A stretch of 64,000 nucleotides of DNA from NCBI RefSeq assembly GCF_947568905.1, contig NC_079170.1, positions 38,254,001 to 38,318,000 on the forward strand, given 5' to 3'. This document shows positions 22,933 to 43,216 of the stretch, in pieces. Source of the stretch: Ostrea edulis (lineage: Eukaryota). The translations under genes and the position numbers were made by a program. Every line of letters starts with the position of its first letter. Position 1 is the first letter of the stretch. The notes beneath the pieces are model-generated. The model searched no databases. It was given only the letters and a program-made list of their open reading frames with translations, and was not told the DNA's origin.

Positions 22933-25125
22933 GCATGTATACTTCATTTATCAAATTTAAAAATGTACGATGGAGTTTTTAACGAATGCTGAAACCAGAA
23001 GATATGCGTTATTTACATGTATGTGTGGGTTATGCAGGCCTGATGTTTACTTCGCAGTGCAAGATCAACTTTGAAGTCGTTCCTACCAGGGGCGCTTGTC
23101 TCATAACCTAGACTTTGTAAGCTACATATATACGTCGCCTCATGCACCAGAAAATGCGATTTTTGATTTATTAAAAGATTTAAACTACAATGTGACTTAC
23201 CATAACATGCAGCATCGTCGCTAATTAAATCCGACACGGTAAAGTATGTAAGCAAATCACAGATTCACGTTTTAAAATCGATGAGACATGACGTCATCTT
23301 TTACATTGTAGAAATATTCATGACGCATTTTATGCTTCGATAGGCGGATCAAGCAATCCCCCAAGTAAAAACATAATGAAACAGCAATTTTGCAAACACT
23401 TAATATTCAGTTTTGTATTTCACATAGGACATCGTTGTACACATTGAGCAGAGTTCGTTTTTGATTTTTTAACCATTCAAATTTTGTGTAACTGTATTTG
23501 TAAACAAAATACCACGTTTTATTTAGAAATAACTGGGAGGGTCAGACAATACCGTATTTTATTGTGCACGTTTAATCCCGTTGATTTTTAATTTCATAAA
23601 TCGAAGTTCTATCAACGTAACAGTATTCCACGGTCCAATGTAAAATTAGAAAAGAAAAAGTGGTGTCGTCGTGGTTGTCAAGGGGATGTGTCCCCATACC
23701 AAGTTACATCTATGCAATTTAAACGAAATTTTTCAACGTATTCAGCCAATCAAATTGTGTGTTGCAAGTGAAATTGAATTATAAACATATAGATTGCAAT
23801 GGGGTTTTTTTTAAAATATTGAACTTAAACTATTGGCAAAAGAAGACACTCATCTTCCAATGTGGAACAAACACTTCACAAAAAGAGCCTTCCATCAATC
23901 TGTACATACAGAAAGAATAGAAAAAATGCAAGGGTGATTGTTATGGAATCTAACATCTGGAAAAGCTCGAGAGATGTAATAACCTCCTAGCAATATGTAT
24001 TTATTTCAAAGGATTATAACGTGAATGGAAAAATTAAAACATTTTCCTTAACTAGTGTATGATGTAAGTCATAAACAATGTTGAATGATGCTTGGTTATG
24101 TCCGATTGTAATAATATCACTAATGACATTTCGGAGGTCTTCGTCTTTTTATGGACTTTCTTCATTTTTCACCATGTCGATACAAGGGAAAAGATGATCT
24201 AATTCCTTAGGAGGTTTTCGTCGTTGGCTCTGGCTGTCAGAAAACATCAGAACATCAGAAAATATCAACACGTTTTTTTTCAATTATTTCAAGACAGTTT
24301 ACATAATCTAAGGACAACTCATCCCTCGACATATAAAACCCCCAGACATATTTATTGTGTTTTGAACTTGTAATATTCAGAAAATTCATTGTAAGTTTTA
24401 GTGGTTTCCTGTTTAAGCTTAGTCATGAAGTACAATTACAACATCTCACCACTTGGTATAAACATCTTCTTTGCAGTTGTTCACCTTAATTATTGCAAAT
24501 TAACATACAATATTTTCATTTGGCCTATTCATTGTGAGAATTTTCTTTCTAAAATCGACTGAATGATTTAAGCGTGCACTGATCTATTCCTTGTAATTAA
24601 AATTAAATGGCTAATTAATTGATGTATAGACAAATCTTTTTCTAGTGTTCTCTATAAAACAATATTTCATGGGTCGAGTTGTCTAAACAAGGGCGTGATT
24701 TGTGTATACAAGAGATTAAATTGAAAATAAAGTGAGAATTGTTTGGAAAACAAAGAACAATAAACAACTTTTGAACGGCAAACGAAAGGTCTTGTCACAG
24801 GGAAATGTGATATATGACAGCCCTATCGTATCCCATTCAAAAGTTCTCAGCAAGGGTAACATTTTGAAATTTTGGGTCAAGCAGAAACAGTGAAGAAAAG
24901 TCCAGAAAATTGTCATATCCATAAGTCTTTTAGAAATAGGTTAACTAAACCCAAACTCAAATTTGATCTGTAACCCATTAATATAAATTCAAGTCTGTCA
25001 CAGGGTGACAATGGCGTATTTTAATTAGCAAATGTTCTATGTACTTAATTCATTTCAGATTGTTCAGTACACTTTCATTCATTCATTCATTCACCTGTTT
25101 ACTAATCCATTCATGCATTGTCATC

Positions 25126-25432
25126 AGTAGTATAACGCCTCCCGATAGGGGGTTCAACTGAGTGCACTTTTTATGCAAATGAGGTCAAGCAAGGGCGTCT
25201 TTTGATTGGTCAAGCGGTGTCGGGGTCAACGGAGTGCACTAGGACGGGGTCAACCCCAGCAGGGGTTGTAGGAGCCGGTGAATAGGTTGGCCTATGGCCG
25301 CTGGTCTATGATGCGGTACTTTCGCTTTGAGTTCCTGCTATTTTTCTGAAAATAAAATCCAGTGAAATCCTGTGTATTAAATCTAAAAGAATAACACAAG
25401 GTTTTAAGTTGACATGTTTATTAAAGAACAAT
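25126..25432 (+). repeat. Left terminal inverted repeat (307 bp)
   Basis: Compared base by base with the reverse complement of 45058-45364; no mismatch seen. Confidence 0.97.
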
Positions 25433-25539: not shown

Positions 25540-28500
25540 ATGTCAGACAAGTTACCTAGTGGACTTCCACGGAGTTATATTGAACAGCGATTGAGATTTT
25601 TGAATGATCAGCTGAACAGACAACGGCAGCGTGAATTACATCTCCGCAGAGAGAATCAACGGCGACTACAGTATTTACAGCGGGGAGGGGGGAAAAAGAA
25701 ACCCATTTCGGATTATTACAAAATTCAACTGGAACGAGGACGTCAATCACGGAAATTTAAAGTCAAGGAAAATGTCTACAATGTTGCCTTCAAGCCTATT
25801 CCAGAGAAAGAAAATACAGCCTTCATTCGTCGCCTCTTCCGGGATATGTTAAAAAATGTGAAACAGGAAATGCAGTGCAATCCCAATGATTATCTACGTT
25901 TAAATATTCGGCACCCGTCTCTGGATTCAGCTATTTGGTACGAATTTACGCAGTCCAATCAGCTCAACGAGGACAAAATTCTGAACAAAATAGAATCCGT
26001 GCAGCAATCTAAAAAGGAATTCCTAATCACCGACGGGGCAGTGCAGATGGATTTTTTCCATGTCAAATATCCACAAGGCAGCGGGTGCACTAAGAAAAAA
26101 CATCTACACGTGGATAAGGAGAAATTCAAAACCTCTAAGAGAGCGATCGTTCGCATTCAAAATCCTGAGGATTCTCTCTGCTTGTCCCGGGCTATTGTGG
26201 TAGCACGTCTACACAGCCAGAAATCAAACGACCCGGCATGGGAAACGAAATGGTTACGCATGAGAAAAGGGGATAAAGATTCTCTCGATCAGAAACGAGA
26301 AGCGATAGCCTTGATGGAACAAGCTGGGTGTGTTATGAACCAGCCGTGTGGGCCACGTGAATGGGAGCAATTACAGCACGCGCTCGCCCCACAGTATCGA
26401 TTGAAAATATTTCAATTCAAAACGAATACAACTCGTTTACGACTGGAACCTATTTACAAAGGACCGGGGCACGGGACTTGTTTGAATATCCTGCTGGATA
26501 ACGAGCATTACGATGCCATTGTGTCTATGCCTGGGGTGACGGAAAACAAATACTATTGCGATTATTGCGATGTTGGCTACAGTCACATTGAAGATCATCG
26601 GACCGTCTGTCCTCATCGATGCTCATTTTGTTTAGCCGATACCCCCTGTACCCCGGACGGGACTCAGACGAATTGCCCTCATTGTAAGGGATTTTTCAGA
26701 AATGCAGCTTGTTACCAGACTCACTTGAAACCTTACAGCAGTAATACAAAGACCACGGTCTGTAGTTTAATGGGGCGCTGTAACCAGTGTCAGAAATGGA
26801 TGTCTAAGCAATTATTAAAACGCCACGCGTGCGGGGGTCAAACCGAATGCCGCATCTGTCACAAAGTCGTCACCATGCCTCATCACTGCTTTGTACAGAC
26901 GAAACCCAAACCTAAGAAAGAAAAAGAAGAAGAGGAGTTGAAAATATACATTTATTACGATTTCGAATGCAGTCAGGAAAACGGTATTCACATCCCCAAT
27001 TTATGCGTGGCAGAACGTGTGTGTCAACATTGCGACAGTGCGGATATCGACAAGCCCTGTTCTCATTGTGAAGGATTCGGATCACAACGCCGCTTCCTAT
27101 TTCAAGGACCCGACACGTTAAAACAGTTTATGGAATGGCTCTTACAGAGCGAGACCGATGAGCAAGGCCATGTGGAACTCAAACACGATGAAGCCACCAT
27201 CATTGCCCACAATTTCAAAGGATACGATGGGCAGTTTATTTTGAATTACCTGGTGCACACGGCGTGTATCAAACCCACCGTCATCCTGAACGGTAGTAAA
27301 ATCTTATCCATGCAAGTCTTGGGGTTGAGATTCATCGATTCTTACAACTTTCTACCCTTTGCTCTTGCCAAGATGCCCTCTGCTTTCGGATTAACGGAAT
27401 TGAAAAAAGGATATTTCCCGCACTTTTTCAACACGACAGAGAACCAGCAGTATGTGGGTCCTTACCCGGCCGCTCATTTCTACAATCCTGACGATATGTC
27501 CACCGCCAATCGTGAAGCCTTCTATACTTGGTACCATCAACAAGAGGGCAAAGTCTTTGATTTCCAGAAAGAATTCTTAGCTTACTGCATCTCGGACGTG
27601 GATATTTTACGCCGGTGTTGTGCCCATTTCAAGTCCACCCTGTTTGATCTGGTGGAAGTAGACCCCTTTCAAGAATCCATCACGTTTGCCAGCACGGCTA
27701 ATTTAGCCTACCGACGAGGATTCATGGTTGAAAATACCATCGCCATCATTCCCAATATGGGCTACCGGCCAGCACGACGATATTCAGCTAAAGCTTGTCG
27801 ATGGCTCGCCTGGCTAGAACATCAACATCACTGCATACGACATGCTAGAAATGGGGGCGAAGTCACGCTTGGACCCTATACAGTAGATGGGTATGATGAG
27901 GAATATCGTATCGTGTACGGATTCTATGGCTGTTACTGGCACGGCTGTCCCACCTGTTTCCCGAAACTGTTGACTGACATGCATCCTCATCGTGTTCAGC
28001 ATACGTATCAAGACCTCTACCTGGACACCTTAAAATGAGCCAGTGCTTTAGAAGACCAAGGCTATACAGTCGTGAGCATATGGGAACACGAGTTTGATCG
28101 TCAGACCCTGACCAATCCCGACTTACAGGAATTTTTACAAGGAGTCGATATACAAGATCCTTTGAATCCCCGTGACGCTTTGTACGGAGGGCGGACCAAT
28201 GCTACACGACTGTATTGTGAGGAAGGTGACATGCGATACGTGGATGTCTGTTCCCTGTACCCGTACGTGTTGAAATACAAGCCATTTCCCGTCCAACATC
28301 CCCAAGTCATCACCAGCCATTTCACCGATGTCAGAGACTATTTCGGGCTCATTCGCTGTCGTGTCCTCCCACCCCGAGAGCTGTATCACCCCGTATTACC
28401 TTACAAGACCGGGGGTAAATTACTCTTTCCCTTATGCCGCACCTGTGCGGAACAGCGCAACTTAGGATCCGACGAGCGGTGCCAGCACACCGATTCTGAA

Positions 28501-29499
28501 CGCAGTCTCACTGGCACCTGGGTGACCACCGAACTTCACAAAGCATTAGATCTAGGCTATCGTCTCGACCGCATTTACGAAGTTTGGCATTTTGAGAAAA
28601 CCAGTGACCACTTATTTCGAGCGTATATCAACACCTTTTTGAAAATTAAACAAGAAGCTTCCGGATTCCCCGAGGATTGTCAAACAGCCCAACAGCAGCA
28701 ACATTACATTGAGGAAATTCAGCAACGAGAAGGCATTGCCATGAACCCGGCAGACATCCAGAAAAATCCTGTCCGAAGAACCATTGCCAAACTCTTTTTA
28801 AATTGCTTGTGGGGAAAATTTGCTCAACGATTACAATTACCCAAATCCCTGTATCTCACGGAAGAAGAAGAATTACAACAGAAATTACAAGATGCCACTT
28901 TAGAAGTCAAAGGCATCGAACTCTTAGAAAATCGTGAACGCCCCGAATGTGGTATGATGCTGATCAATTATCAGGAGAAAGAAGAATTTTTAGAAGACTG
29001 TCCCTTTGGAAACGTGGTGCTGGCGTGTTTTACAACAGCTCATGCTCGTTTACATTTGTACGAGACGTTACAGCCTTTGGGAGAGCGTGTCTTATACTTT
29101 GACACGGATAGTATCATCTATCAGCACGACGAGACCCAGTTCAATCCGACCATTATCAACAGTTTAGGTGGCTGGACCGATGAATTGGGTGGAGATCGTA
29201 TCATCAAGTACATGTCGGGCGGGCCCAAAAATTATGCATACGAGACCCAGGGGGAAAAATCTGTCTGCAAAGTCAAAGGATTGACACTCAATTATCGTGC
29301 CTCTAGAGTCGTGTCTCTCGATACGTTGGAAAAAATGTTAAAAGGAGAAGAAGAAGAAGTCCATGTCCGTTATCCGCACTTTATTCAACGAACCCGCCAA
29401 CATGATGTGCGAACCATTCCTCTGGTGAAGAAATACCGCATGGTGTATGATAAACGTCAACGTATTCATGACTATGACACGCTGCCTTACGGGTATTAA
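25540..29499 (+). pseudogene. pPolB: Protein-primed family B DNA polymerase interrupted by one in-frame TGA at 28036-28038
   Basis: ORFs 25540-28038 and 28072-29499 are in the same frame. Motifs: OTU-like DSLCL...HYD; Exo I YYDFEC; Exo II HNFKGYD; Exo III YCISDV; Vsr-like GCYWHGC; YGGRT; DVCSLYP; KLFLNCLWGK; YFDTDS; PKNY. Confidence 0.96.
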
Positions 29500-29534
29500 A
29501 AAGGATATGCTAGAGAAAACCATCAGTCGGCAAA

Positions 29535-30065
29535 ATGACGGACTACGAATCACTACATAACCCGGGTACACCACGTTATGCTCTACTGTCAGATCGAGTA
29601 GCGTCGTTTGAAAATGCTCCCGAACACTTGCAGAAGCTATTACCTACCATTGCAGAAGCGGGATACTTTTACAAAGGGTACGGGGATAACACGTGCTGTT
29701 TTTATTGCAACTTTGGACTTCACCATTGGGGAGCTGTCGACAATCCTTGGATACAACATGCTTATTGGTATCCTCACTGTCCTTACCTGAAGTGTAATAA
29801 GGGTAAACAATGGGTACGTCAAATGTTCGACGCCGTTAGCCGAATGCGAGACACGGGGAAGAATTGGGGAGACTTGTCTGTAGACAGTGTGGAGAATCCG
29901 GCTACGACGACGGAGAAATGTCATCTGTGTTTAGAACGAGACTTGAGAATAGCTTTTTTACCTTGTGGTCATTTATGTACTTGTGCTATATGTGCTACGG
30001 GACTGAAATAATGTCCTATTTGTAGACATAGTGTTGAGCAAGCTGTACGTATTTTTATTTGTTAA
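29535..30065 (+). pseudogene. iap: IAP-like BIR plus RING protein; RING truncated by in-frame TAA at 30009-30011
   Basis: Exact BIR zinc motif CX2CX16HX6C; RING CHLC...PCGHLCTCAIC, and after the stop the frame continues CPICRHSVEQAVRIFIC to TAA at 30063-30065. Confidence 0.92.
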
Positions 30066-30105
30066 TAAATATGTATGATCCCATGAACTTGTGTCATTTA
30101 TCAAG

Positions 30106-30744
30106 ATGTATACCTACGAGACACTTGAGCCTTTTCAGTTGAAACATGAATTTACCATGACGGTGGCTGGACCCTCTAAATCGGGTAAAACAGAATTTGT
30201 GAAGCAACTGGTACAAAATACGCAGTGGATTGCACCGCCTCCCGAAAAGATAGTATGGTGTTATCGAGAATGGCAGTCCGCGTACGAATCCTTACAGGAC
30301 AAGGTCACTTTTATCCGCAATATACCTCAAGACGATGAGCAGATAGTGGCGGATCTCAGTACGTGTCATCTACTCATTTTTGATGATATGATGGGAGGTA
30401 AAGCCATCGAATCGATTGTCGACTGGTTTACGCGCAAAGCGCATCATCGAAATACCAGTGTCATTTATATCACACAAAATCTGTTTGATCGAGCAGTACA
30501 ACATCGTACCATCAGTCTGAATGCTCACTATCTTGTGCTGTTTAAAAATCCTCGAGATAAATCACAGATTGGGGTGTTAAGTCGGCAATTACAAATGCCG
30601 CATTTACTTCCAGCCTATGAGGACGCCACCCGTGTACCTCACGGGTATTTACTAGTGGACTTGAGTCCTCAGACGTCGGACGATTTAAGATTAAGAAGTC
30701 AACTCTTTACCAACTTGGCTGTGCACATGCCCCCGAGAGTATAA
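30106..30744 (+). CDS. ATP: Genome packaging ATPase (A32/FtsK-like)
   Basis: Walker A GPSKSGKT, Walker B LLIFDDM, then HHRNTSVIYITQN; first in-frame ATG at 30106 (track starts at GTG 30091). Confidence 0.95.
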   Translation: MYTYETLEPFQLKHEFTMTVAGPSKSGKTEFVKQLVQNTQWIAPPPEKIVWCYREWQSAYESLQDKVTFIRNIPQDDEQIVADLSTCHLLIFDDMMGGKAIESIVDWFTRKAHHRNTSVIYITQNLFDRAVQHRTISLNAHYLVLFKNPRDKSQIGVLSRQLQMPHLLPAYEDATRVPHGYLLVDLSPQTSDDLRLRSQLFTNLAVHMPPRV

Positions 30745-32036: not shown

Positions 32037-32803
32037 GTCGAAAAATGGTGTTGGTACCGGAAGCGATGCTCAACGAATTAAAAGGCAAATTACCTAAACC
32101 TCCCGAATTTACCTCGACTATTGGTTTACGCAGTGATTTGGACGAGATTGAACATCGAGATGATTTAACCGAGAAAGAAAAAGTGGGGTTGTACGGTCAT
32201 CAACTTCATCGCTATCGTCAATATTTACAACAAGCTCGACATCCCACCACAGCGACTCGACCCTCCCCAACCAGTGCAACCAGTGGCGCCTCACCACCCT
32301 CAGCCGCCTCAACACCCGATGACTTGGAGGAACAGATTATCAAAAGCGTCAATAAACCGGGTCAAAAGAAAGCAGGTTTATTACTCGATCATCTCAAGAA
32401 ATCCAAAGTGGTGACTTGGAATAAAGAAAGAGAAATCAGCTATAGAGGACGCAGGGTTCCCGATTCCAATATCGTGGATTTAATCACCGAGTCCCAGAGA
32501 CAAAAACCTTTGAAACATCGTGAACCCCCTGCAGGGTTACAGCAATTTGCTCAAGCGTTAAAAGAAACGAATGCCCCTAAAGGATATTTGACCAATCGGG
32601 ATGTTATAAAAGCCATGGACAAGCCCGGAAAAATCAGTACTCCTAAACCTATAGAAGAAGAAGATGAGAGCGGATTTCAAGAAATCTCTGGTTTTGACCA
32701 ATCTTTCTATGAAACTCCCAGACGAATGATGACCCCTAAAAATATCAGGGAGGCTGGTAAAAAGACATCACGTGAAATTGGAAAATGGTTAAATCTACCA
32801 TGA
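32033..32803 (+). CDS. Conserved uncharacterised Polinton protein upstream of integrase (256 aa)
   Basis: W.....I...G..VPDSNIVDL...G...F..AL...N.P motif pattern typical of the Polinton gene preceding INT. Confidence 0.8.
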   Translation: MSRKMVLVPEAMLNELKGKLPKPPEFTSTIGLRSDLDEIEHRDDLTEKEKVGLYGHQLHRYRQYLQQARHPTTATRPSPTSATSGASPPSAASTPDDLEEQIIKSVNKPGQKKAGLLLDHLKKSKVVTWNKEREISYRGRRVPDSNIVDLITESQRQKPLKHREPPAGLQQFAQALKETNAPKGYLTNRDVIKAMDKPGKISTPKPIEEEDESGFQEISGFDQSFYETPRRMMTPKNIREAGKKTSREIGKWLNLP

Positions 32804-33870
32804 AACCAGAACAGATCTTACAGCGACTGTATTACGATCCCAAGACAGGTTATGGGGGAGTCCAGGCGTTGTATCGTCAAGTGCGTCAATTAGGACACAA
32901 GATTACCCTGTCTCAAATTCGAGAATGGGTGAAAGCTCAAGATACCTATACCTTGCATAAACCGATACGGAGGAAATTCAAGCGACGACAAACACGCGTG
33001 ACGGATATGGATGAACAATGGCAATTAGATTTAGCCGATGTCTCCAGCTTGAAACAAGACAATAATGGGTATACGTTTTTATTATGTGCCATTGACGTGC
33101 TGTCTAAATATGCCTGGGTCGTGCCTTTAAAACAGAAAACGGGGAAAGAAATGATACGAGGCTTACGACGGATTTTTCGAGAGGGACGTCGCCCCGTGCG
33201 CATTCAGTCCGATCAAGGAAAAGAATTTACCAATAAAGAATTTCGTCAAGCCTTCAAATCCATTCATTTCTTTACGACCCGTAATGCCGAAACCAAAGCC
33301 AGTATTGTGGAACGTTTTCAACGCACGCTGAAAGCACGCATGTGGCGGTATTTTACACGTCATAAAACACGACGGTATGTCGATGTCTTGGCCGATCTGA
33401 TGTATGGTTACAATCATACCTATCATCGCAGTATCCGGCGAGCTCCTGCTCAAGTCAATGCCAAGAATGTCTTGACCGTATGGAAAACCTTGTATGGAAA
33501 ACAGAGTGCCGATACCACGAGTCGCTTGCAAGTGGGGGATCGTGTAAGCATTAGTAAAGCTAAACGTACGTTTGAAAAAGGATATTTACCGAATTGGACC
33601 AAAGAACTGTTTACCATCTCTAGAAAAGTGCCAGGACGAAACGTCTATCGCATTCAAGATGATCACGGGGAAGAATTAGAAGGAACCTTTTACGAGAAGG
33701 AATTACAACAAGTGATTAAAGACGACGATGTCTATGAAGTGGAGGAAATCTTAGGGTATAAAAAGCGGCGTGTGGGAAAAAAAGTCATTTCAGAAGTCAA
33801 AGTGCGTTGGAAAGGATATCCTCCCAGTTTTGATTCATGGATTCCGCAAGCGGATCTCATTCGACCATGA
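32800..33870 (+). CDS. INT: Retroviral-like DDE integrase with C-terminal chromodomain
   Basis: WQLDLAD, IQSDQGKEF, ASIVERFQRTLK (D,D,E); chromodomain YEVEEIL...VRWKGYPPSFDSWIP. Start at ATG 32800 (ATGA overlap) or 32785. Confidence 0.96.
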   Translation: MKPEQILQRLYYDPKTGYGGVQALYRQVRQLGHKITLSQIREWVKAQDTYTLHKPIRRKFKRRQTRVTDMDEQWQLDLADVSSLKQDNNGYTFLLCAIDVLSKYAWVVPLKQKTGKEMIRGLRRIFREGRRPVRIQSDQGKEFTNKEFRQAFKSIHFFTTRNAETKASIVERFQRTLKARMWRYFTRHKTRRYVDVLADLMYGYNHTYHRSIRRAPAQVNAKNVLTVWKTLYGKQSADTTSRLQVGDRVSISKAKRTFEKGYLPNWTKELFTISRKVPGRNVYRIQDDHGEELEGTFYEKELQQVIKDDDVYEVEEILGYKKRRVGKKVISEVKVRWKGYPPSFDSWIPQADLIRP

Positions 33871-34124
33871 CCACCCAGTGGACTTTCTTGGGTGAAAAAG
33901 TCCCCCGAGCAGAAATTGTGTATTTTGCACAATTATTCCTGTGTTTAACCATCATTATCACCTCGGTCGTGATGTTAGCCTTAGGCGATCCCAATCGCGA
34001 TTTTTGGATGGTGACCTTAAGTTCTCTCGTAGGCTACGTCATGCCTAGTCCACAAATGACGTTAGCGAGCCCGAGTATAAAACAGGAGTCCCCTTCACCT
34101 GAGAGATCAGTTCACCATGGCTAA
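33867..34124 (+). CDS. Small predicted two-TM membrane protein (85 aa)
   Basis: ATG overlaps the integrase TGA; hydrophobic IVYFAQLFLCLTIIITSVVMLAL and FWMVTLSSLVGYVMP. Confidence 0.7.
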   Translation: MTTQWTFLGEKVPRAEIVYFAQLFLCLTIIITSVVMLALGDPNRDFWMVTLSSLVGYVMPSPQMTLASPSIKQESPSPERSVHHG

Positions 34125-34572
34125 GCCACAGTACGCCTGGAAACAAGAGGGGGAGAAAAGTACCTGGTTCTGGGATAAGCAGATGTGTTTGATGCATTGT
34201 AAACAACACAAAGTGTTAGATCAACCGGTGTACTTGTACAAACGGATACTGATACCTCACGGATGGTCAGCCTTTATCATGAAGACTAAATATCAAGAGT
34301 TTCGCTGGAAAGTCAAAGCCTTCTGGGGATTGATGGGACGACAAGACGAATCCGATTGGACCTTAAATGATAGTCCTTGGTTTGACAATTCCGAGGACTG
34401 TCTCCGACATTTCAAAGACATGATCAATGAAGGTTATGATGTAGCCGATTGCTGGGGAACCCGACACTATCTGGTGATGCGACGACGCTTAGTCCCGAGA
34501 CGAACACTAGAGTTGGAAGACTCCTTTCTACAATCGTTGACTTGCGGTGGTGGTCGCGATCAAGAAGAATGA
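34117..34572 (+). CDS. Hypothetical protein (151 aa, Trp-rich)
   Basis: ORF with TATAAAA at 34076-34082, accATGg start and AATAAA at 34610-34615; no family recognised. Confidence 0.7.
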   Translation: MAKPQYAWKQEGEKSTWFWDKQMCLMHCKQHKVLDQPVYLYKRILIPHGWSAFIMKTKYQEFRWKVKAFWGLMGRQDESDWTLNDSPWFDNSEDCLRHFKDMINEGYDVADCWGTRHYLVMRRRLVPRRTLELEDSFLQSLTCGGGRDQEE

Positions 34573-34687
34573 CATGTAAAATTGTGTATTAACATTATGT
34601 TGTATGTTCAATAAAATATGAAAATGTTCATTGTGTTATGAGTATAAATAGAGAAGGAAACAGAGACAGGGTCTCATTTAAGACATC

Positions 34688-35683
34688 ATGGCTGGAGGAG
34701 AAGGGTTTTACATGACTCTGTTGAGTGATGGGTCGATGGAATCGTTTCCGACGAATACGACGGCTCAATTTAAAACGTTATTGCCACACACCATGGACTT
34801 AACGGATGGAGAATGGGAAGTCGGATTGACCGAAATGATGTACTCGGCCAACTTACAAAACGTATCGGATAGCGAGGCTTATGTGGACGTTCTCATTCCA
34901 GATCCGTATACGCAATATGTCCAAGATCCCAACACTTATAAATGGGAAAGATTTAAGACACAGAATATGGGTAAAGTCACGATAGCCGGGTGTGAGGTGG
35001 TGGTCCCCTGGGATCTCACGCCATGGTCCCATCTCTTTGCGGGAGGGGATAGTTTATTTCCCTTCGATATCATTCGCATTCACTTCCGACCCGGAGCTTA
35101 TACACAACCTTTGGCGTTAATCAATGAAATCAACGCAGCCTTAAGGAGAACCCTGTGGAAAGTATGGAGGGAGTTAGGGAATCCTAACGACGAGGGGAAC
35201 AACCAGCTCTTAGTGTATCACCCCGAGTACGATCGTGTCGAGTATCAGTTTAATGGGAAAGCACTGAGATCCACCCCCATGTGCATTCGTTTCCCTACGC
35301 CCTTAGCGTACAAGCTAGGTCTGGATAGTGACAAAATGATCCTGGGCGATGAAACCATGACGAAATGGATCAACGTGAATTACTTGGGGAACACGGCCAT
35401 GGATGTCTACGACAATCTGAAAGCCATGTATGTGTATTGTGACATTGTGGATCCTCAAGTGGTGGGCACCAACAAATTGAAATTATTGAGAGTCGTCCCC
35501 TGTACGGGTCAATACGACGATCGACAACAAGCCCGTTGGGAACCGATTCGAGCCGAATATTTGAAACTGAGTAAGAAATATTTCGATACCATTGAGGTAC
35601 ACATCATGAATTCTTTAGGGCGTCCTATGGGCTTTTTAAATGGGCGCTCCTTAGTCAAACTTCATTTCCGCAAAGTGTATTGA
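34688..35683 (+). CDS. PX: Minor capsid protein (penton-like, single jelly roll)
   Basis: N-terminal FYMTLLSD...FKTLLP..MDL..EWEVGLTE and C-terminal YVYCDIV...VG......LLRVVP...DTIEVHI....G...F..G....LHF motifs; TATAAATA at 34643. Confidence 0.9.
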   Translation: MAGGEGFYMTLLSDGSMESFPTNTTAQFKTLLPHTMDLTDGEWEVGLTEMMYSANLQNVSDSEAYVDVLIPDPYTQYVQDPNTYKWERFKTQNMGKVTIAGCEVVVPWDLTPWSHLFAGGDSLFPFDIIRIHFRPGAYTQPLALINEINAALRRTLWKVWRELGNPNDEGNNQLLVYHPEYDRVEYQFNGKALRSTPMCIRFPTPLAYKLGLDSDKMILGDETMTKWINVNYLGNTAMDVYDNLKAMYVYCDIVDPQVVGTNKLKLLRVVPCTGQYDDRQQARWEPIRAEYLKLSKKYFDTIEVHIMNSLGRPMGFLNGRSLVKLHFRKVY

Positions 35684-36632: not shown

Positions 36633-38036
36633 ATGATGCACAGAGAATCTTGCGCTTGTGGCACCGACAGTTTAGAACTGTTTAAAGTGCCCCCGACCAA
36701 CGTCACTTTAGAAGATTCGAAATGGATGGAATATTACCCCATTTCCAGTACCCTCAACTCGGATACGGCTCCGATTGAATTTGAAATCAAAGGACAAGGA
36801 GATGAATATCTGGATTTATCCCAAACTTATCTCCAGATGGTCTGTAAATTCACCAAAGCAGACGGGACGAATCTCGCAGGAGGCAATTCGACCTCGACCC
36901 CCGTGAATAACATTCTCCATTCCTTGTTCAGTGAAATCGATGTCAGTCTCAATGGAAAAGTCATTACCCCGGGGACGGATACTTATCCCTACAAAGCGTA
37001 TCTGGAGAAATTGTTGTCTTATGCACCCAAGACTCTGGAAACCCAGATGAGAGCCTGTAGCTTGTGGGAAAAAGATACGGCAGGACATATGGATGAGGTC
37101 AAATTAGAAGCTCTGACTCAACCTCCTGTGGAATTTGCAGTAGCGCTTGATAAAGTCAACATCGCGGCCGTCATCCCGACTCCCGTGTATCCGGATGATT
37201 CCAAGAATGTAGGGTTGAGAAAACGTCACGAGAAGATTACAGACAGTAAGGAGATCGTGTTGATGGATCGATTACATCTGGATTTGTTTGAGCAAGAGAA
37301 ATGTCTCCCTAATGGCTTGGATGTCCGTCTCAGATTCAATCGCGCTCGACCCCAGTTCTACATGATGACCGCTGCCGGGAGTAGTGGGAAAGTGGTCATT
37401 CAAAGTATGATCTTGTGGGTGAGGAAAGTCAAACCTGTGCCGAGTATCATTAATCTCATCAATCAGCAACTGAGTACTCAAACGGCGAAATATCCATTGA
37501 GACGAGTGGAAGTGAAAACCTTCACCATTCCTAGTGGCACCCAGTCTAAAATCACCGATCATCTGTTTCAAGGACAGATGCCTAAACTGATCGTGTTGGG
37601 TTTTGTGGACAATGCGGCTTTTAATGGGGATAATACCAGAAACCCCTTTCATTTCCAAAATGAGAGAGTCAAGAAATTAGAAATCAGTATCAATGGAGAA
37701 ATGATGGAAACCCGCCCTTTGGAACCTAATTTCACCGACGATCAGTACCTGAGATCGTATTTGAGTCTGTACAAAGGCTTGGGAAAATTAGGCCAGGACT
37801 GGGCTCCGGACATTACCCTGGAAGAGTATAAAAACGGTTACACCCTCTGGTGTGTGGATTTCACGAAAGATCAAGAAGCCCAGACGGATAAATTTCATCT
37901 CATACAGACGGGGAACTTGAGAGTGGAAGTGCAATTTGCCGCCAACGTGGCCAGGACCTTAAACTGTGTGGTGTATGCCGTGTTCGACAATCTGCTAGAA
38001 ATCAACAAACAACGAGAAGTCAGTATCGATTACTAA
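36633..38036 (+). CDS. PY: Major capsid protein (double jelly roll)
   Basis: PIEFEI...[48 protein letters not shown] and GNLRVEVQF motifs; TATAAAAA at 36560. Confidence 0.95.
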
Positions 38037-38043
38037 GAGAGAG

Positions 38044-38541
38044 ATGGATACTCAGCAATTGAGAGATGTTTTACAACGAGATTTAGGACCGGCGTTTGCC
38101 GGTGTGTATCCTCGAGATGTCATACCTGAGCTGTTACCTCATCACAAAGCCATCGTGGTGAATACAGACCCTCACGATCGCCCTGGAGCGCATTGGGTCT
38201 GTTTGTATTTGAGTAGCCCTACCGTCGAATATTTTGATTCTTACGGATTACCTCCCAGCCATAAAGACATCCAAGACTTTATTCAACGCCACGGAGAGAC
38301 TTGGATTCATAACACCCATTGTTATCAAGATTTGAATACGGATGTCTGTGGACAATACTGTGTGTATTTTTTACATCAACGCCATCGCCATAGAAGCACC
38401 GTACGAGAATGGTTACTTCCCTGGAAAGGCACGGCCTTACAACGCGATCGTTTTGTGGCGGATTGGTTTAAAGAGACCTTCCGAAAACCGAGAACCCATC
38501 AAGGACAAACTTGTCAATGTCAAAGACTGAATGTATTGTAA
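38044..38541 (+). CDS. PRO: Adenain-like cysteine maturation protease
   Basis: NTD...PGAHW, YFDSYG, YQ.....CGQYC catalytic His/Asp/Gln/Cys pattern. Confidence 0.95.
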   Translation: MDTQQLRDVLQRDLGPAFAGVYPRDVIPELLPHHKAIVVNTDPHDRPGAHWVCLYLSSPTVEYFDSYGLPPSHKDIQDFIQRHGETWIHNTHCYQDLNTDVCGQYCVYFLHQRHRHRSTVREWLLPWKGTALQRDRFVADWFKETFRKPRTHQGQTCQCQRLNVL

Positions 38542-39229: not shown

Positions 39230-39631
39230 ATGTCGTTTGAACGGTACGTGGATGGTGAGAAAGATGTACTAATGTGTGGGTATTGCCGAGGACCTTGGAG
39301 AACTTGTGGGTGTTTTCATTATAAAAAAGAAAACATCCTGGCCAAACATAAGTGGATAGAGTATATGGCAGAGCTGAATTATTGTCCCTTTGTCTATAAA
39401 TGTTGTGGTCACACTAGAGAACCCTGGCTACCGTGTAAGTGTCCGCAGCATTGTACCATCAACCCTGAAGATGAAATAGCTCATAAGGACTGTACCTGTG
39501 AGATCTGTCAGGAGTTTAGAGAGCGCTGGACTCAGAGAAAGTTTAAACCCCACCTGTTTCAACATTGTCCTTACAGTCAAGAACCCCGGTCAACGTGTAC
39601 CTGTGAGACCTGTCAACCAGCATGTCGGTGA
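39230..39631 (+). CDS. Cys/His-rich putative metal-binding protein (133 aa)
   Basis: Many CxxC/CxC motifs; internal repeat CTCEICQ / CTCETCQ. Confidence 0.7.
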   Translation: MSFERYVDGEKDVLMCGYCRGPWRTCGCFHYKKENILAKHKWIEYMAELNYCPFVYKCCGHTREPWLPCKCPQHCTINPEDEIAHKDCTCEICQEFRERWTQRKFKPHLFQHCPYSQEPRSTCTCETCQPACR

Positions 39632-40119
39632 CGGATCTACGAGGAGATGTATTATCTCTACCTTGGGTGGATGGTATTGTACAACAATGTAACTGTTTAA
39701 CGGTGAAACCTCATGGATTAAGTCAACGTATTGCCGACCGATTTCCTTGGGCTAATCTGTATGCGACCCGACAACCTTTAGGACGAAGAAATTTAGCTAT
39801 AGAAGCGGATCGAGGAATACCGGGTACTGTGTGTATTATGCCTCATTCTTCTCATCCTGATGTAATCTGTTTGTTAGCGCAATGGGATTACGGGAGAGGC
39901 ACTCAACGCTTACCCCTGTATGCCGATACCCCCGAACAACGTGAACTTTGGTTTCAACAATGTTTACAGGAATTAGGCACTTTGTCTTACCAGACTTTAG
40001 CGTTTCCTTATCGTATTGGATGTGGATTAGGCGGAGGCAATTGGACTCATTATAGACAATGGATTTGTGACTTTGCTTATCAGTATCATAAACATGTTTA
40101 CATTGTCAAGAAAATGTAA
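39622..40119 (+). CDS. Macrodomain protein (TARG1/DarG/SCO6735-like class), putative ADP-ribosyl hydrolase
   Basis: GDVL...IVQQCNC...GL...I...FP; VICLLAQ..YG; FPYRIGCGLGGGNW diphosphate-binding loop. Confidence 0.85.
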   Translation: MSVTDLRGDVLSLPWVDGIVQQCNCLTVKPHGLSQRIADRFPWANLYATRQPLGRRNLAIEADRGIPGTVCIMPHSSHPDVICLLAQWDYGRGTQRLPLYADTPEQRELWFQQCLQELGTLSYQTLAFPYRIGCGLGGGNWTHYRQWICDFAYQYHKHVYIVKKM

Positions 40120-40269: not shown

Positions 40270-41058
40270 TCAATCCCTGGTTCCGGTAAACCGGCATAAC
40301 GGGCACCGTCCCCGGGTGTGTCGCCGCTCCTGTAACTCTTCCACGCACGAGCAGCAAGCTGGGCGCTGCCCACATCCCCTACACGTAATTCCAGAGTGTA
40401 CCCTGTCTTGCCAGCAGACAGGACACTTAAACCAGATAGGAACCGCCCTATCTGCCCAGCCAGGGACAGTCATAGGGTGGTTCCTCGGGGGATGAGTTGC
40501 CACCGGTGCGTGGGTTGGTCTCGGTGGCGGAGTCCTCCCTGCAAACCGGATGGTAGGTGGTGGGGGTCTTGCAGGGGCTGCTGGTCTCGGTGGTGATGCC
40601 GTGTCTGCCACCAACAGCGACGGACTCTGGGCTGGACTGGGAGGTGGTGCGGGGGACGGTGACCTCGGTGAATACTCCACCGGTGACGCTGGTGAGTCGC
40701 TCATCGGCACCGGGCTGTATTCCTCAGGTGCCGATGGGATCGGTGGTGGTGGTGTTGTAGGCGTCGCCGGGGAGTAAGGTGGTGGTGGTGAGGGTGGCTG
40801 TGGGGCCCGTCGGCGCGGTCTCGTGGCCGTGGAGATTCGAGCGGTGCGGCGGCGGGGTGCCCTCCCTTCATACTCGGCCCGCACCCGGCAGATGATCTCA
40901 CGGACCCCACTCTGGTCGAAAGGGGAGAAGGTGCTCAGGTCGTTCTCAGAACGCACGACCCAATTCTCCCCTACCCGTTCCTCAGCCACCACTACCAGCC
41001 GGTACCGGAATCCAGGCAAGGTCTGGAAATTGTAGAGCGGGTCTCTTCTTGTAGCCAT
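40270..41058 (-). CDS. Pro-rich protein with a C-terminal RING finger (C4C4-like), 262 aa
   Basis: ATG at 41058 (track start 41109 is GTG); CPVC-x10-C-x2-C-x5-CCSC-x13-CPLCR; PPPPY and YSP repeats. Confidence 0.8.
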   Translation of the reverse strand: MATRRDPLYNFQTLPGFRYRLVVVAEERVGENWVVRSENDLSTFSPFDQSGVREIICRVRAEYEGRAPRRRTARISTATRPRRRAPQPPSPPPPYSPATPTTPPPPIPSAPEEYSPVPMSDSPASPVEYSPRSPSPAPPPSPAQSPSLLVADTASPPRPAAPARPPPPTIRFAGRTPPPRPTHAPVATHPPRNHPMTVPGWADRAVPIWFKCPVCWQDRVHSGITCRGCGQRPACCSCVEELQERRHTRGRCPLCRFTGTRD

Positions 41059-41611: not shown

Positions 41612-41830
41612 TCAAATACATAACTCCCACACACAACACCAATGCACATGTCTTTTTAAAATAGGGTCCAACATTTTTTCCATTTCTCGAATCCTGCGTT
41701 GAAATCGATATCGATCAGCGGCTACAGTCATCCAGATACTTGTCCGGTCTTCTTCGGGTAACCGATACACTTCATTATGATCCAGATTAAAAGTCACACG
41801 TTTAACTTGACGTACATCTCTCGAAGACAT
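41612..41830 (-). CDS. DP71L/ICP34.5/GADD34-like PP1 regulatory subunit (72 aa)
   Basis: ATG 41830: MSSRDVRQVKRVTFNLDHNEVYRLPEEDRTSIWMTVAADRYRFQRRIREMEKMLDPIL; RVxF motif plus the W...A.DR.RF.RRI...E..L signature. Confidence 0.85.
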   Translation of the reverse strand: MSSRDVRQVKRVTFNLDHNEVYRLPEEDRTSIWMTVAADRYRFQRRIREMEKMLDPILKRHVHWCCVWELCI

Positions 41831-42099
41831 CGTAGTCTGATTTTCTCGATTTCTGCTCTGTCTGTGGGTCGAATTCGTTTCAATTCCTGGCCCATTAAAT
41901 GAATCAATACTAAGGCTTGCGGGGTGATCCGGTTCTCGATCAAATACTGACAGAGACATGGATAGTCCTTTAAGCTGATGGGAAATAATTCTTCTCGCAT
42001 ATAGTGTAACACAAATTCAATCTGCCAAGAATGAATGTCTGTGAGATAATCCAATACATAAGTTATCGCTTTCTCTGTGATGTGGTCACTGCTGGCCAT
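41794..42099 (-). CDS. Unknown helical protein, tandem paralogue 4 (101 aa)
   Basis: ATG 42099; shares FPxxLxxY and LxxIxxxGxExKxxxP....I..I...L motifs with its neighbours. Confidence 0.75.
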   Translation of the reverse strand: MASSDHITEKAITYVLDYLTDIHSWQIEFVLHYMREELFPISLKDYPCLCQYLIENRITPQALVLIHLMGQELKRIRPTDRAEIEKIRLRCLREMYVKLNV

Positions 42100-42433
42100 C
42101 CTCCGGGAATAAATGAAATGAATTAAGTTCTTCACACTTTATGTATACTTCTCGAAGCCAGTCCTTGGTGATACTTTCAATCTCAACGGTTTTTTCAGGC
42201 ATGCGTTTCTTGAATTCCTCCCCCAGGACATAAATTAACATCAATCCCGCATCGTTATAGAGATTGATGTATATCCGGTTCCGTAGATCTGTATATTCGT
42301 CCAGAGTCATTGGAAACACCCCCGCTATCAGAAAATTTTTAACGAATTGAAACACCGTATCGTCTTGCATTTTCTCGACCCATTCTAATGCATGGTTATG
42401 CGCTTTTTCTGCGATGTTGTCACTGCTGGCCAT
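42086..42433 (-). CDS. Unknown helical protein, tandem paralogue 3 (115 aa)
   Basis: Start region GGAGGATGGCCAGCAGTGAC identical to that of the 42099 ORF; shared protein motifs. Confidence 0.8.
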   Translation of the reverse strand: MASSDNIAEKAHNHALEWVEKMQDDTVFQFVKNFLIAGVFPMTLDEYTDLRNRIYINLYNDAGLMLIYVLGEEFKKRMPEKTVEIESITKDWLREVYIKCEELNSFHLFPEDGQQ

Positions 42434-42462
42434 CCTCCACGAATAAAGGAAAAGAAAAACGG

Positions 42463-42816
42463 TTAGGTTTTTTTATACACCTTTTCCAACCAGTGATCGG
42501 TAATCGCTACAATCGCCCCAGTCTTCTCAGGTTCCCGTCGTCTAAATTCTTGCTCCATGGTATAATTCATGATCAATCCAGACTCTCTGTTCAGGTTGCC
42601 GGCTATATGCTTGCAAACGCCGGAATATTCATATAAGGTCATAGGAAATTCCCAAAAGATCAACAACTTCATAGCGAATTTATATCTCAACGGCTGTTTT
42701 TCTTTCCAGTCCTTGATACACTGTAATGCAGCGCTACGAGCGTTGTTCACCGATTCTTTGTAGTCCTTGAAATGCTGTAATACAGCGGTAAGAACGTTGT
42801 TGGTCAATTCAGCCAT
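42463..42816 (-). CDS. Unknown helical protein, tandem paralogue 2 (117 aa)
   Basis: FPMTLYEY, EQEFRRREPEKT and HWLEKVY align with paralogue 3. Confidence 0.75.
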   Translation of the reverse strand: MAELTNNVLTAVLQHFKDYKESVNNARSAALQCIKDWKEKQPLRYKFAMKLLIFWEFPMTLYEYSGVCKHIAGNLNRESGLIMNYTMEQEFRRREPEKTGAIVAITDHWLEKVYKKT

Positions 42817-42853
42817 GATGATCAAAATGAAAAAATTCCAAAACGTTCTTGTT

Positions 42854-43186
42854 TTATAACAGGGCAGCCATTCCTTTCATACGAATCAGTTCCACGAATC
42901 CTTTTTGTAAACAATCGCGTAAGATCCGATCAATGTCACTCATCTGGTCTGGAAGATTCTGTTTCAATTCCTCAGCATACAAATAAATCATGAGTAAACG
43001 TCCCGTATTGGTATTCTCCGCTAATGAATCAGCAATCCGTTGAAAACTATGTACATTTCTGACCTCCGGTGACATCTGTTGTACAAATTGACGAGCATTT
43101 TGAATGTGAGGATTATGTAAGGCCATGTTCATACATTGTAGTACATAACTATATCCATTTATTCTCGTAGTAGCACTGCCGCCCAT
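42854..43186 (-). CDS. Unknown helical protein, tandem paralogue 1 (110 aa)
   Basis: LLMIYLYAEELKQNLP...IDRILRDCL aligns with the family; TATAAATA on the minus strand at 43217-43224 favours ATG 43186 over 43213. Confidence 0.7.
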   Translation of the reverse strand: MGGSATTRINGYSYVLQCMNMALHNPHIQNARQFVQQMSPEVRNVHSFQRIADSLAENTNTGRLLMIYLYAEELKQNLPDQMSDIDRILRDCLQKGFVELIRMKGMAALL

Positions 43187-43216
43187 AGTAAATAACGAAC
43201 GTTCAGAAAACATCTG

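Follow-up and report, generated by a model that had tools for sequence, protein, structure and literature searches.

Homologs of Bcl2 and of inhibitor of apoptosis proteins (IAPs) have been reported for adintoviruses in one sentence of section 3.2 of Starrett et al. 2021 (PMC8502044), and the text of Supplementary Fig. S2 of the same work places two IAP labels beside the map names of a Mytilus mussel and a Pinctada oyster. According to the available parts of that article, these adintoviruses are of the same element class as the oyster element analysed here and have the same core genes. Because IAP and Bcl2 are on record there, the presence of an IAP in Polintons was already known and the gene described below is another member. 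Sections 3.1 and 3.2 of the article are silent on how many copies there are, on selection and the exchange of alleles, on loss of the gene and on a PP1 adaptor, and a literature search, thin on subscription journals, found no earlier report of the selection and allele-swap pattern, of a tie between these elements and host IAP counts or of a PP1-adaptor gene in Polintons. A second body of work concerns bivalve genomes, whose intronless dispersed IAPs are ascribed to retroposition (PMC7831173, PMC8917759, PMC13159474); the words "Polinton" and "Maverick" have 0 occurrences in the main text of these three articles in its available form.

The window (the whole 64,000 bp stretch of Ostrea edulis DNA that was analysed) carries a 20.2 kb element that forms a GC-richer island. 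The host flanks (1-25119 and 45371-64000) are AT-rich and contain microsatellites, tandem arrays of 16-29 bp and dispersed repeats; no ORF longer than 143 aa was found in them within the listed part (15000-48000). The element has the following features:

25120..25125, no strand: left target-site duplication of 6 bp, identical hexamer at 45365-45370
25126..25432, plus strand: left terminal inverted repeat, begins (AGT)2, 100% complementary to 45058-45364
25540..29499, plus strand: protein-primed DNA polymerase B (PolB), Pfam DNA_pol_B_2 in both halves, private stop at codon 833
29535..30065, plus strand: IAP, intronless; type II BIR (residues 21-85), linker and RING (127-169); early TAA stop (codon 159) confined to this copy
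30106..30744, plus strand: A32/FtsK-like packaging ATPase, Pfam Pox_A32 E 5.4e-6, over the cutoff
32785..33870, plus strand: retroviral-type integrase with chromodomain, Pfam rve E 1.6e-11 and Chromo E 3.9e-8
36633..38036, plus strand: likely major capsid protein (double jelly roll), ESM Atlas score 0.98
38044..38541, plus strand: adenovirus-type maturation protease, Pfam Peptidase_C5 E 2.9e-4, 21.0 bits against a cutoff of 21.3 (just below)
41612..41959, minus strand: DP71L/GADD34-like PP1-binding protein with RVxF-type motif, Pfam PP1c_bdg 26.2 bits against a cutoff of 26.1
41794..43213, minus strand: tandem array of four related helical ORFs of 101-119 aa, likely of Bcl-2 fold (alignments and model)
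45058..45364, minus strand: right terminal inverted repeat, ends (ACT)2, complement of the left repeat
45365..45370, no strand: right target-site duplication, matches the left hexamer

This element is a Polinton/Maverick, alias adintovirus. Proteins nearly identical to those it encodes carry the Ostrea edulis label at NCBI. A 6-bp target duplication is the rule for Polintons; the 308-nt repeat arm returned here by the repeat search takes in one base of it. The terminal motif (AGT)2//(ACT)2 is as given in PMC8097293, in the part available. The gene set described for Polintons and adintoviruses in section 3.1 of PMC8502044 (available in part) was found in full: protein-primed PolB, rve integrase, packaging ATPase and adenain protease, the last slightly under its cutoff. 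ORF 36633..38036 likely codes for the double-jelly-roll (DJR) major capsid protein: it has no Pfam capsid match, 14-24% of the members of its matching ESM Atlas clusters carry PF21738 (DJR-like), and the candidate and the DJR-like clusters have 233 of 256 ESM Atlas features in common.

Four further ORFs were observed in the element. A penton candidate (34688-35683, plus strand) is named by position alone and has no Pfam match; its best alignment to same-backbone siblings reaches only 70-72% coverage, possibly owing to a length difference or a lesion. The plus-strand ORF 39622-40119 is macrodomain-like, with weak PDB matches (E 0.012-0.78), and is mostly absent from both B-type siblings examined (the IAP types A, B and C are defined below). 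ORF 40270-41058 (minus strand) is proline-rich, ends in a RING-like cysteine cluster, has no Pfam match and sits within a mosaic tract common to C-type elements. ORF 44345-44977 (plus strand) has two CCHC zinc knuckles and varies among copies.

The IAP gene has 176 codons plus the terminal stop (stops are rendered as X in the translation). It starts 35 bp 3′ of the PolB stop (29499), and 40 bp separate its end from the ATPase start (30106). The earlier note had described it as a Polinton-borne IAP with a single BIR and a RING placed between PolB and ATPase, a description borne out by the Pfam domains and by the structure of the element. The BIR (E 1.2e-15, 58.2 bits against a cutoff of 22.9) and the RING (zf-C3HC4_3, E 4.8e-12, 45.9 bits against a cutoff of 27) both exceed the curated Pfam cutoffs, which rules out a chance match. 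The BIR motif, claimed to be exact, is complete in its zinc ligands (C55-x2-C58-x16-H75-x6-C82). Residues Q74, H75, W78 and C82 correspond to Q/E76, H77, W80 and C84, which define type II BIRs (PMC8917759, in the part available); neither a type I BIR nor a UBA is present. At E<=0.001 the IAP matches 83 PDB sequences, the best being cIAP1 (top), NAIP and DIAP1, and it aligns with cIAP1 BIR3 across the groove and with the cIAP1 RING up to the C-terminal aromatic residue. The PDB alignments show that the SFxxWP motif with which a BIR usually begins is without its Trp here, a change that may affect folding or binding. Six RING ligands (C129, C132, C144, H146, C150 and C153) precede the TAA of codon 159 (30009-30011), and C160-P-I-C163 lies directly beyond it, exactly where the earlier note had seen the last CPIC pair. 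The TAA removes C160, C163 and the C-terminal tail, leaving the window copy with no complete C3HC4 RING; with the last two zinc ligands and the tail gone, its E3 activity would be lost.

The same codon was checked in sibling elements, as the earlier note had proposed, and the stop proved to be private. A DNA search of the same genome returned 157 candidates; 40 of them were scored and 30 fetched. A single one of these 30 IAP loci has the stop, and the others (29/29) are open at 175-176 aa with a complete RING. A protein search returned 64 full-length hits at 86-100% identity, 63 of them open with frames of 182-188 aa and the window copy alone shortened (165 aa). One more close IAP copy is interrupted at another position. 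The 10 "non-3n indels" counted in the IAP across copies probably reflect an edge effect at the run of A that precedes the start codon; the same frames are open in the fetched loci. PolB of the window copy is interrupted by a single stop (codon 833) that none of the siblings aligning over full length has (6/6). Singleton nonsense changes among the 30 copies amount to one each in PolB-C, IAP and ATPase, in three different copies. Because the IAP stop is private, because PolB of the same element is stopped too and because nonsense changes arise at a similar rate in PolB and ATPase elsewhere, the stop is likely a case of neutral decay after insertion. An assembly error masking a gene that is intact in the animal is highly improbable: the stop is a one-base difference known from a single assembly, but private nonsense is about equally infrequent among other genes and copies, as decay predicts, and the terminal repeats were assembled at 100% identity.

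RefSeq names the IAP copies of the element as BIRC7-like, DIAP-like or XIAP-like host genes. In models of 209 aa the BIR runs on in frame into the ATPase, with a GT...AG interval spliced out that the window contains as well (29814-30138), and further fused IAP-ATPase models occur in O. edulis and Saccostrea cucullata. The BIR-ATPase fusions may be prediction artefacts. Eight of the 18 listed sequencing runs were compared; all consist of assembled contigs of uncertain RNA status that are unable to show transcription. Runs X2 and X6, with 29 of 30 bins covered, may be DNA; the contigs of X13, X16 and X18 cover host flank as well, and X12 gave short pieces only (~92-94% identity), whose ends carry what we take to be a cDNA adapter.

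These data bear on the suggestion of the earlier note that the stop could leave a BIR-only decoy, which was not borne out. The BIR and its groove are intact, the gene of the window copy has just 2 singleton changes, and RING-less forms are at least predicted, as spliced BIR-ATPase models under at least 8 O. edulis accessions. However, the stop is found in one of 64 copies, in an element whose PolB is stopped as well and against a similar nonsense rate in PolB and ATPase, and no contig joint fitting the predicted splice was present in the 8 runs among the matches listed. A truncated form selected as a decoy is scarcely credible on this balance, and neutral decay is the reading kept here.

The IAP is not a one-off passenger absent from all siblings, an outcome that by the earlier note would have spoken against its reading. 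The 150 listed ATPase rows correspond to 141 places after merging 9 second fragments, and an IAP lies upstream of the ATPase at 125 of these listed places at least: 80 of 81 where ATPase identity is at least 97%, 45 of 54 at 79-91%, and 0 of 6 more distant ones. From the IAP list 136 of 150 rows were kept; the 14 dropped were partial BIR-only rows, and no Polinton genes were found near the two that were checked. The order PolB-IAP-ATPase was seen in 17 of 18 element loci, the remaining one having no PolB. The gene is thus embedded between PolB and ATPase rather than in host flanks outside a DNA element, and does not have the setting of a host retrogene. S. cucullata has at least 13 named IAP relatives of 176-236 aa on scattered contigs, and in one of its RefSeq models a related IAP is fused with the ATPase of a Polinton (79% over 85 aa), which suggests that the IAP has the same neighbourhood in this other genus. 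Distant IAP/RING genes were found at 80 loci in a metagenome scan, and only one of these loci (L076) matches another element gene. At 168-1043 this contig carries a compact BIR-RING gene that faces, in head-to-head orientation, a relative of the 34688-35683 ORF; judged by its sequence, it is probably another Polinton IAP, differently arranged. Viral contigs scanned with P0003 and with alignment A5 gave no locus.

The IAP has also been lost from some copies. Ten of the 16 ATPase places with no listed IAP were checked, together with 4 distant loci. Seven places, all of an older lineage, retain only a short RING remnant, six of them with a common junction; of the other three, one has a clean deletion, one is truncated and one carries a degraded IAP. 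The loss thus concerns 8 copies, the seven older-lineage remnants and one young deletion. The latter (L151, G000:C5:93835600-93840600) lacks 532 bp equivalent to 29501-30032 of the window, a clean deletion of almost exactly the IAP gene. No IAP was found within 20 kb around the ATPase of the 4 distant Polinton loci. Since the lineage with the RING remnant multiplied, IAP-less elements can spread, alone or helped in trans, and the IAP can be dispensed with for this.

Sequence comparison between lineages indicates that the IAP is under purifying selection yet evolves much faster than the core genes. Its dN/dS is 0.33-0.49 over 7 lineage pairs, which are non-independent, and the values for pairs with divergent backbones are 0.08-0.11 in PolB-C and 0.06-0.09 in ATPase; IAP dN is 4-5 times that of the core genes. 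In the one pair tested, IAP dN/dS is below 1 (p=1e-5) and above that of PolB (p=4e-10). Over a dS range of 0.6-0.95 neither the frame nor the zinc ligands nor the C-terminal tail has been lost, and the BIR groove segment varies strongly by lineage. Elements with the young backbone (ATPase >=97%) carry three IAP types: among the copies listed, 28 are of type A (that of the window), 37 of type B and 15 of type C, the latter with ~60% protein identity. Two exchanged tracts were delimited in window coordinates:

29506..30058, no strand: tract swapped for a divergent C-type IAP on the same backbone (mismatches in L034, L035 and L037)
29819..29951, no strand: C-type linker tract within B-type copies (sequence comparison)

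In L034, L035 and L037, the three copies with a C-type IAP on the young backbone that were examined, identity per 100-bp bin is 92-100% in the flanks and 62-85% in the first tract, which coincides almost exactly with the IAP gene. Between L037 and the older-lineage element L031, dS is 0.017 in the IAP and 0.87 in PolB. The B-type IAP consists of an A-type BIR and a C-type linker. As judged from these alignments, IAP versions are exchanged by recombination between lineages, and because the recombinants lie at many dispersed loci they would have multiplied after recombining. Mosaic tracts are found elsewhere in the element too, so the IAP swap shows recombination and is, alone, no proof of selection. 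Two such tracts, at 32400-32900 and 33900-34650, have 80-96% identity to same-backbone copies and a higher one towards C-type copies.

The patterns of exchange and loss raise the question of whether the IAP is merely hitchhiking at near-neutrality, so that recent amplification explains its persistence and ectopic gene conversion among integrated copies its shuffling. The multiplication of IAP-less copies, a singleton pN/pS of 0.74 in the IAP against 0.32-0.48 in its neighbours (small counts) and a mosaicism that is general in the element and reported for this virus group (bioRxiv 10.64898/2026.10.13.758929, in the part available) agree with such a history. It is nevertheless very unlikely, given the conservation of frame, ligands and tail over that range of dS and a dN/dS below 1 for which the pairwise test already rejects neutrality. 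Other sources contain relatives that are intact (171-181 aa, 42-75% identity), which argues in the same direction.

Two companion loci of the element were also characterized. The protein encoded by 41612..41959 has an RVxF-type motif followed downstream by a W..A.DR.RFQRRI block, the arrangement of PPP1R15/DP71L. A sibling of it reaches 34.8 bits for PP1c_bdg, its best PDB match is DP71L of African swine fever virus (ASFV; E 1.9e-5), followed by PPP1R15B, and all 10 sibling elements compared have the gene (10/10), with identities of 46-99%. DP71L has a role in eIF2-alpha dephosphorylation (PMC5346070, in the part available). The helical array likely has a Bcl-2 fold according to its model (pLDDT 78.7), whose 12 top structure matches all belong to the Bcl-2 family (12/12; Z 6.5-7.8, values below 8 being common for helical bundles according to the search tool; rmsd 3.4-4.5). 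One member of the array matches Pfam Bcl-2 at E 0.007, below the cutoff. Atlas, Pfam (above cutoff), PDB-sequence and homolog searches returned no named family, a Foldseek comparison to viral structures gave nothing at E<=0.001, and a single-sequence model of 42854-43213 was poor (pLDDT 50). The array varies in copy number, a 117-aa member being absent in 3 of 6 same-backbone siblings; contigs of two sequencing runs skip ~334 bp inside it.

We give a probability of about 0.72 to the reading that the IAP belongs to the regular accessory genes of an oyster Polinton family with many copies, likely blocking host cell death during replication, and that the stop in the window copy is likely neutral decay. 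The earlier note had proposed that the gene protects infected cells. This role is plausible because the IAP recurs as cargo and is under purifying selection. From general IAP biology, the groove of the type II BIR would bind a Smac-like antagonist or a processed caspase by its N-terminal IAP-binding motif (IBM), and the bound protein would then be ubiquitinated by the dimeric RING. The PP1 adaptor would reverse the eIF2-alpha shut-off and the Bcl-2-like array would block the mitochondrial route, the three forming a putative counter-defence kit by which the cell may stay alive and translating during replication. Co-resident lineages would recombine and trade whole or partial IAP versions, which would then multiply. 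Alternatively, the intact IAP could be an E3 ligase whose targets are restriction factors or factors of immune signalling and not caspases. Signalling roles of this kind are known for cellular BIR-RING IAPs (PMC8917759, in the part available), the RING is intact in 63 of the 64 full-length close copies, and the lineage-variable groove residues, with a dN 4-5 times that of the core, look as if they followed a shifting host target. We consider this rather unlikely, as a lone type II BIR with neither type I BIR nor UBA suits IBM binding and the Bcl-2-like neighbours indicate cell death.

A broader interpretation of the block on cell death is put forward tentatively. Oyster Polintons would be viruses of animals, engaged in an arms race against the death of host cells, equipped with the IAP, a DP71L-like PP1 adaptor and an accordion of Bcl-2-like genes, and trading IAP alleles between lineages under selection; with more than 120 copies annotated as host BIRC7/DIAP, part of the "retroposed" IAP expansion of bivalves would then be Polinton cargo. 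No virions have been observed for animal Polintons (PMC8097293, in the part available), so that selected counter-defence genes would be indirect evidence of a virus-like life cycle. Annotation-based counts of bivalve IAPs can include element cargo: there are at least 125 places here, compared to a total of 159 IAPs given for the hard clam (PMC7831173, in the part available). Since a single backbone in this genome comes with different IAP alleles, with recombinants and with deletions, the value of the gene is testable by population genetics. The broken copy of the window is itself ordinary and the interest lies in the family-level picture.

The position of the IAP among known proteins was assessed in a quick tree of BIR+RING segments (118 of 129 rows, 140 columns; 11 rows were dropped because the motif was missing). 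One clade (SH-aLRT 99) unites six element copies with seven metagenomic proteins and two from Saccostrea; it has no supported sister, host sequences included, and two baculovirus IAP3s are placed elsewhere. No malacoherpesvirus BIR was among the named matches in this tree. ASFV has a comparable host-control set, of which DP71L is matched by sequence and A179L by fold (rank 3), both from the companion genes. ASFV also encodes an IAP, A224L. Unlike that of ASFV, the oyster set sits in a 20-kb integrating element. Baculovirus IAP3 is a viral, anti-apoptotic protein that combines BIR and RING as the Polinton protein does, and two named IAP3s match at 31-32% identity; their length is greater (260-283 aa) and the quick tree does not place them in the Polinton clade. 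IAP3 has two BIRs. The bivalve IAPs regarded as retroposed resemble the Polinton copies in being intronless, dispersed and present in numerous near-identical copies, but the former are said to spread by retroposition whereas the Polinton IAP is dispersed via a DNA element. The intronless clade of the hard clam, described as BIR-only in the part of its report available, is a different gene. Among cellular proteins, BIRC7/ML-IAP, the BIR3+RING part of cIAP1 and DIAP1 combine a type II BIR with a C-terminal RING as the Polinton IAP does, BIRC7 having a single BIR and a RING. The Polinton IAP differs from these cellular BIR-RING proteins by its length of 175-176 aa, its intronless gene, its very short linker, its residence in an element and its own clade.
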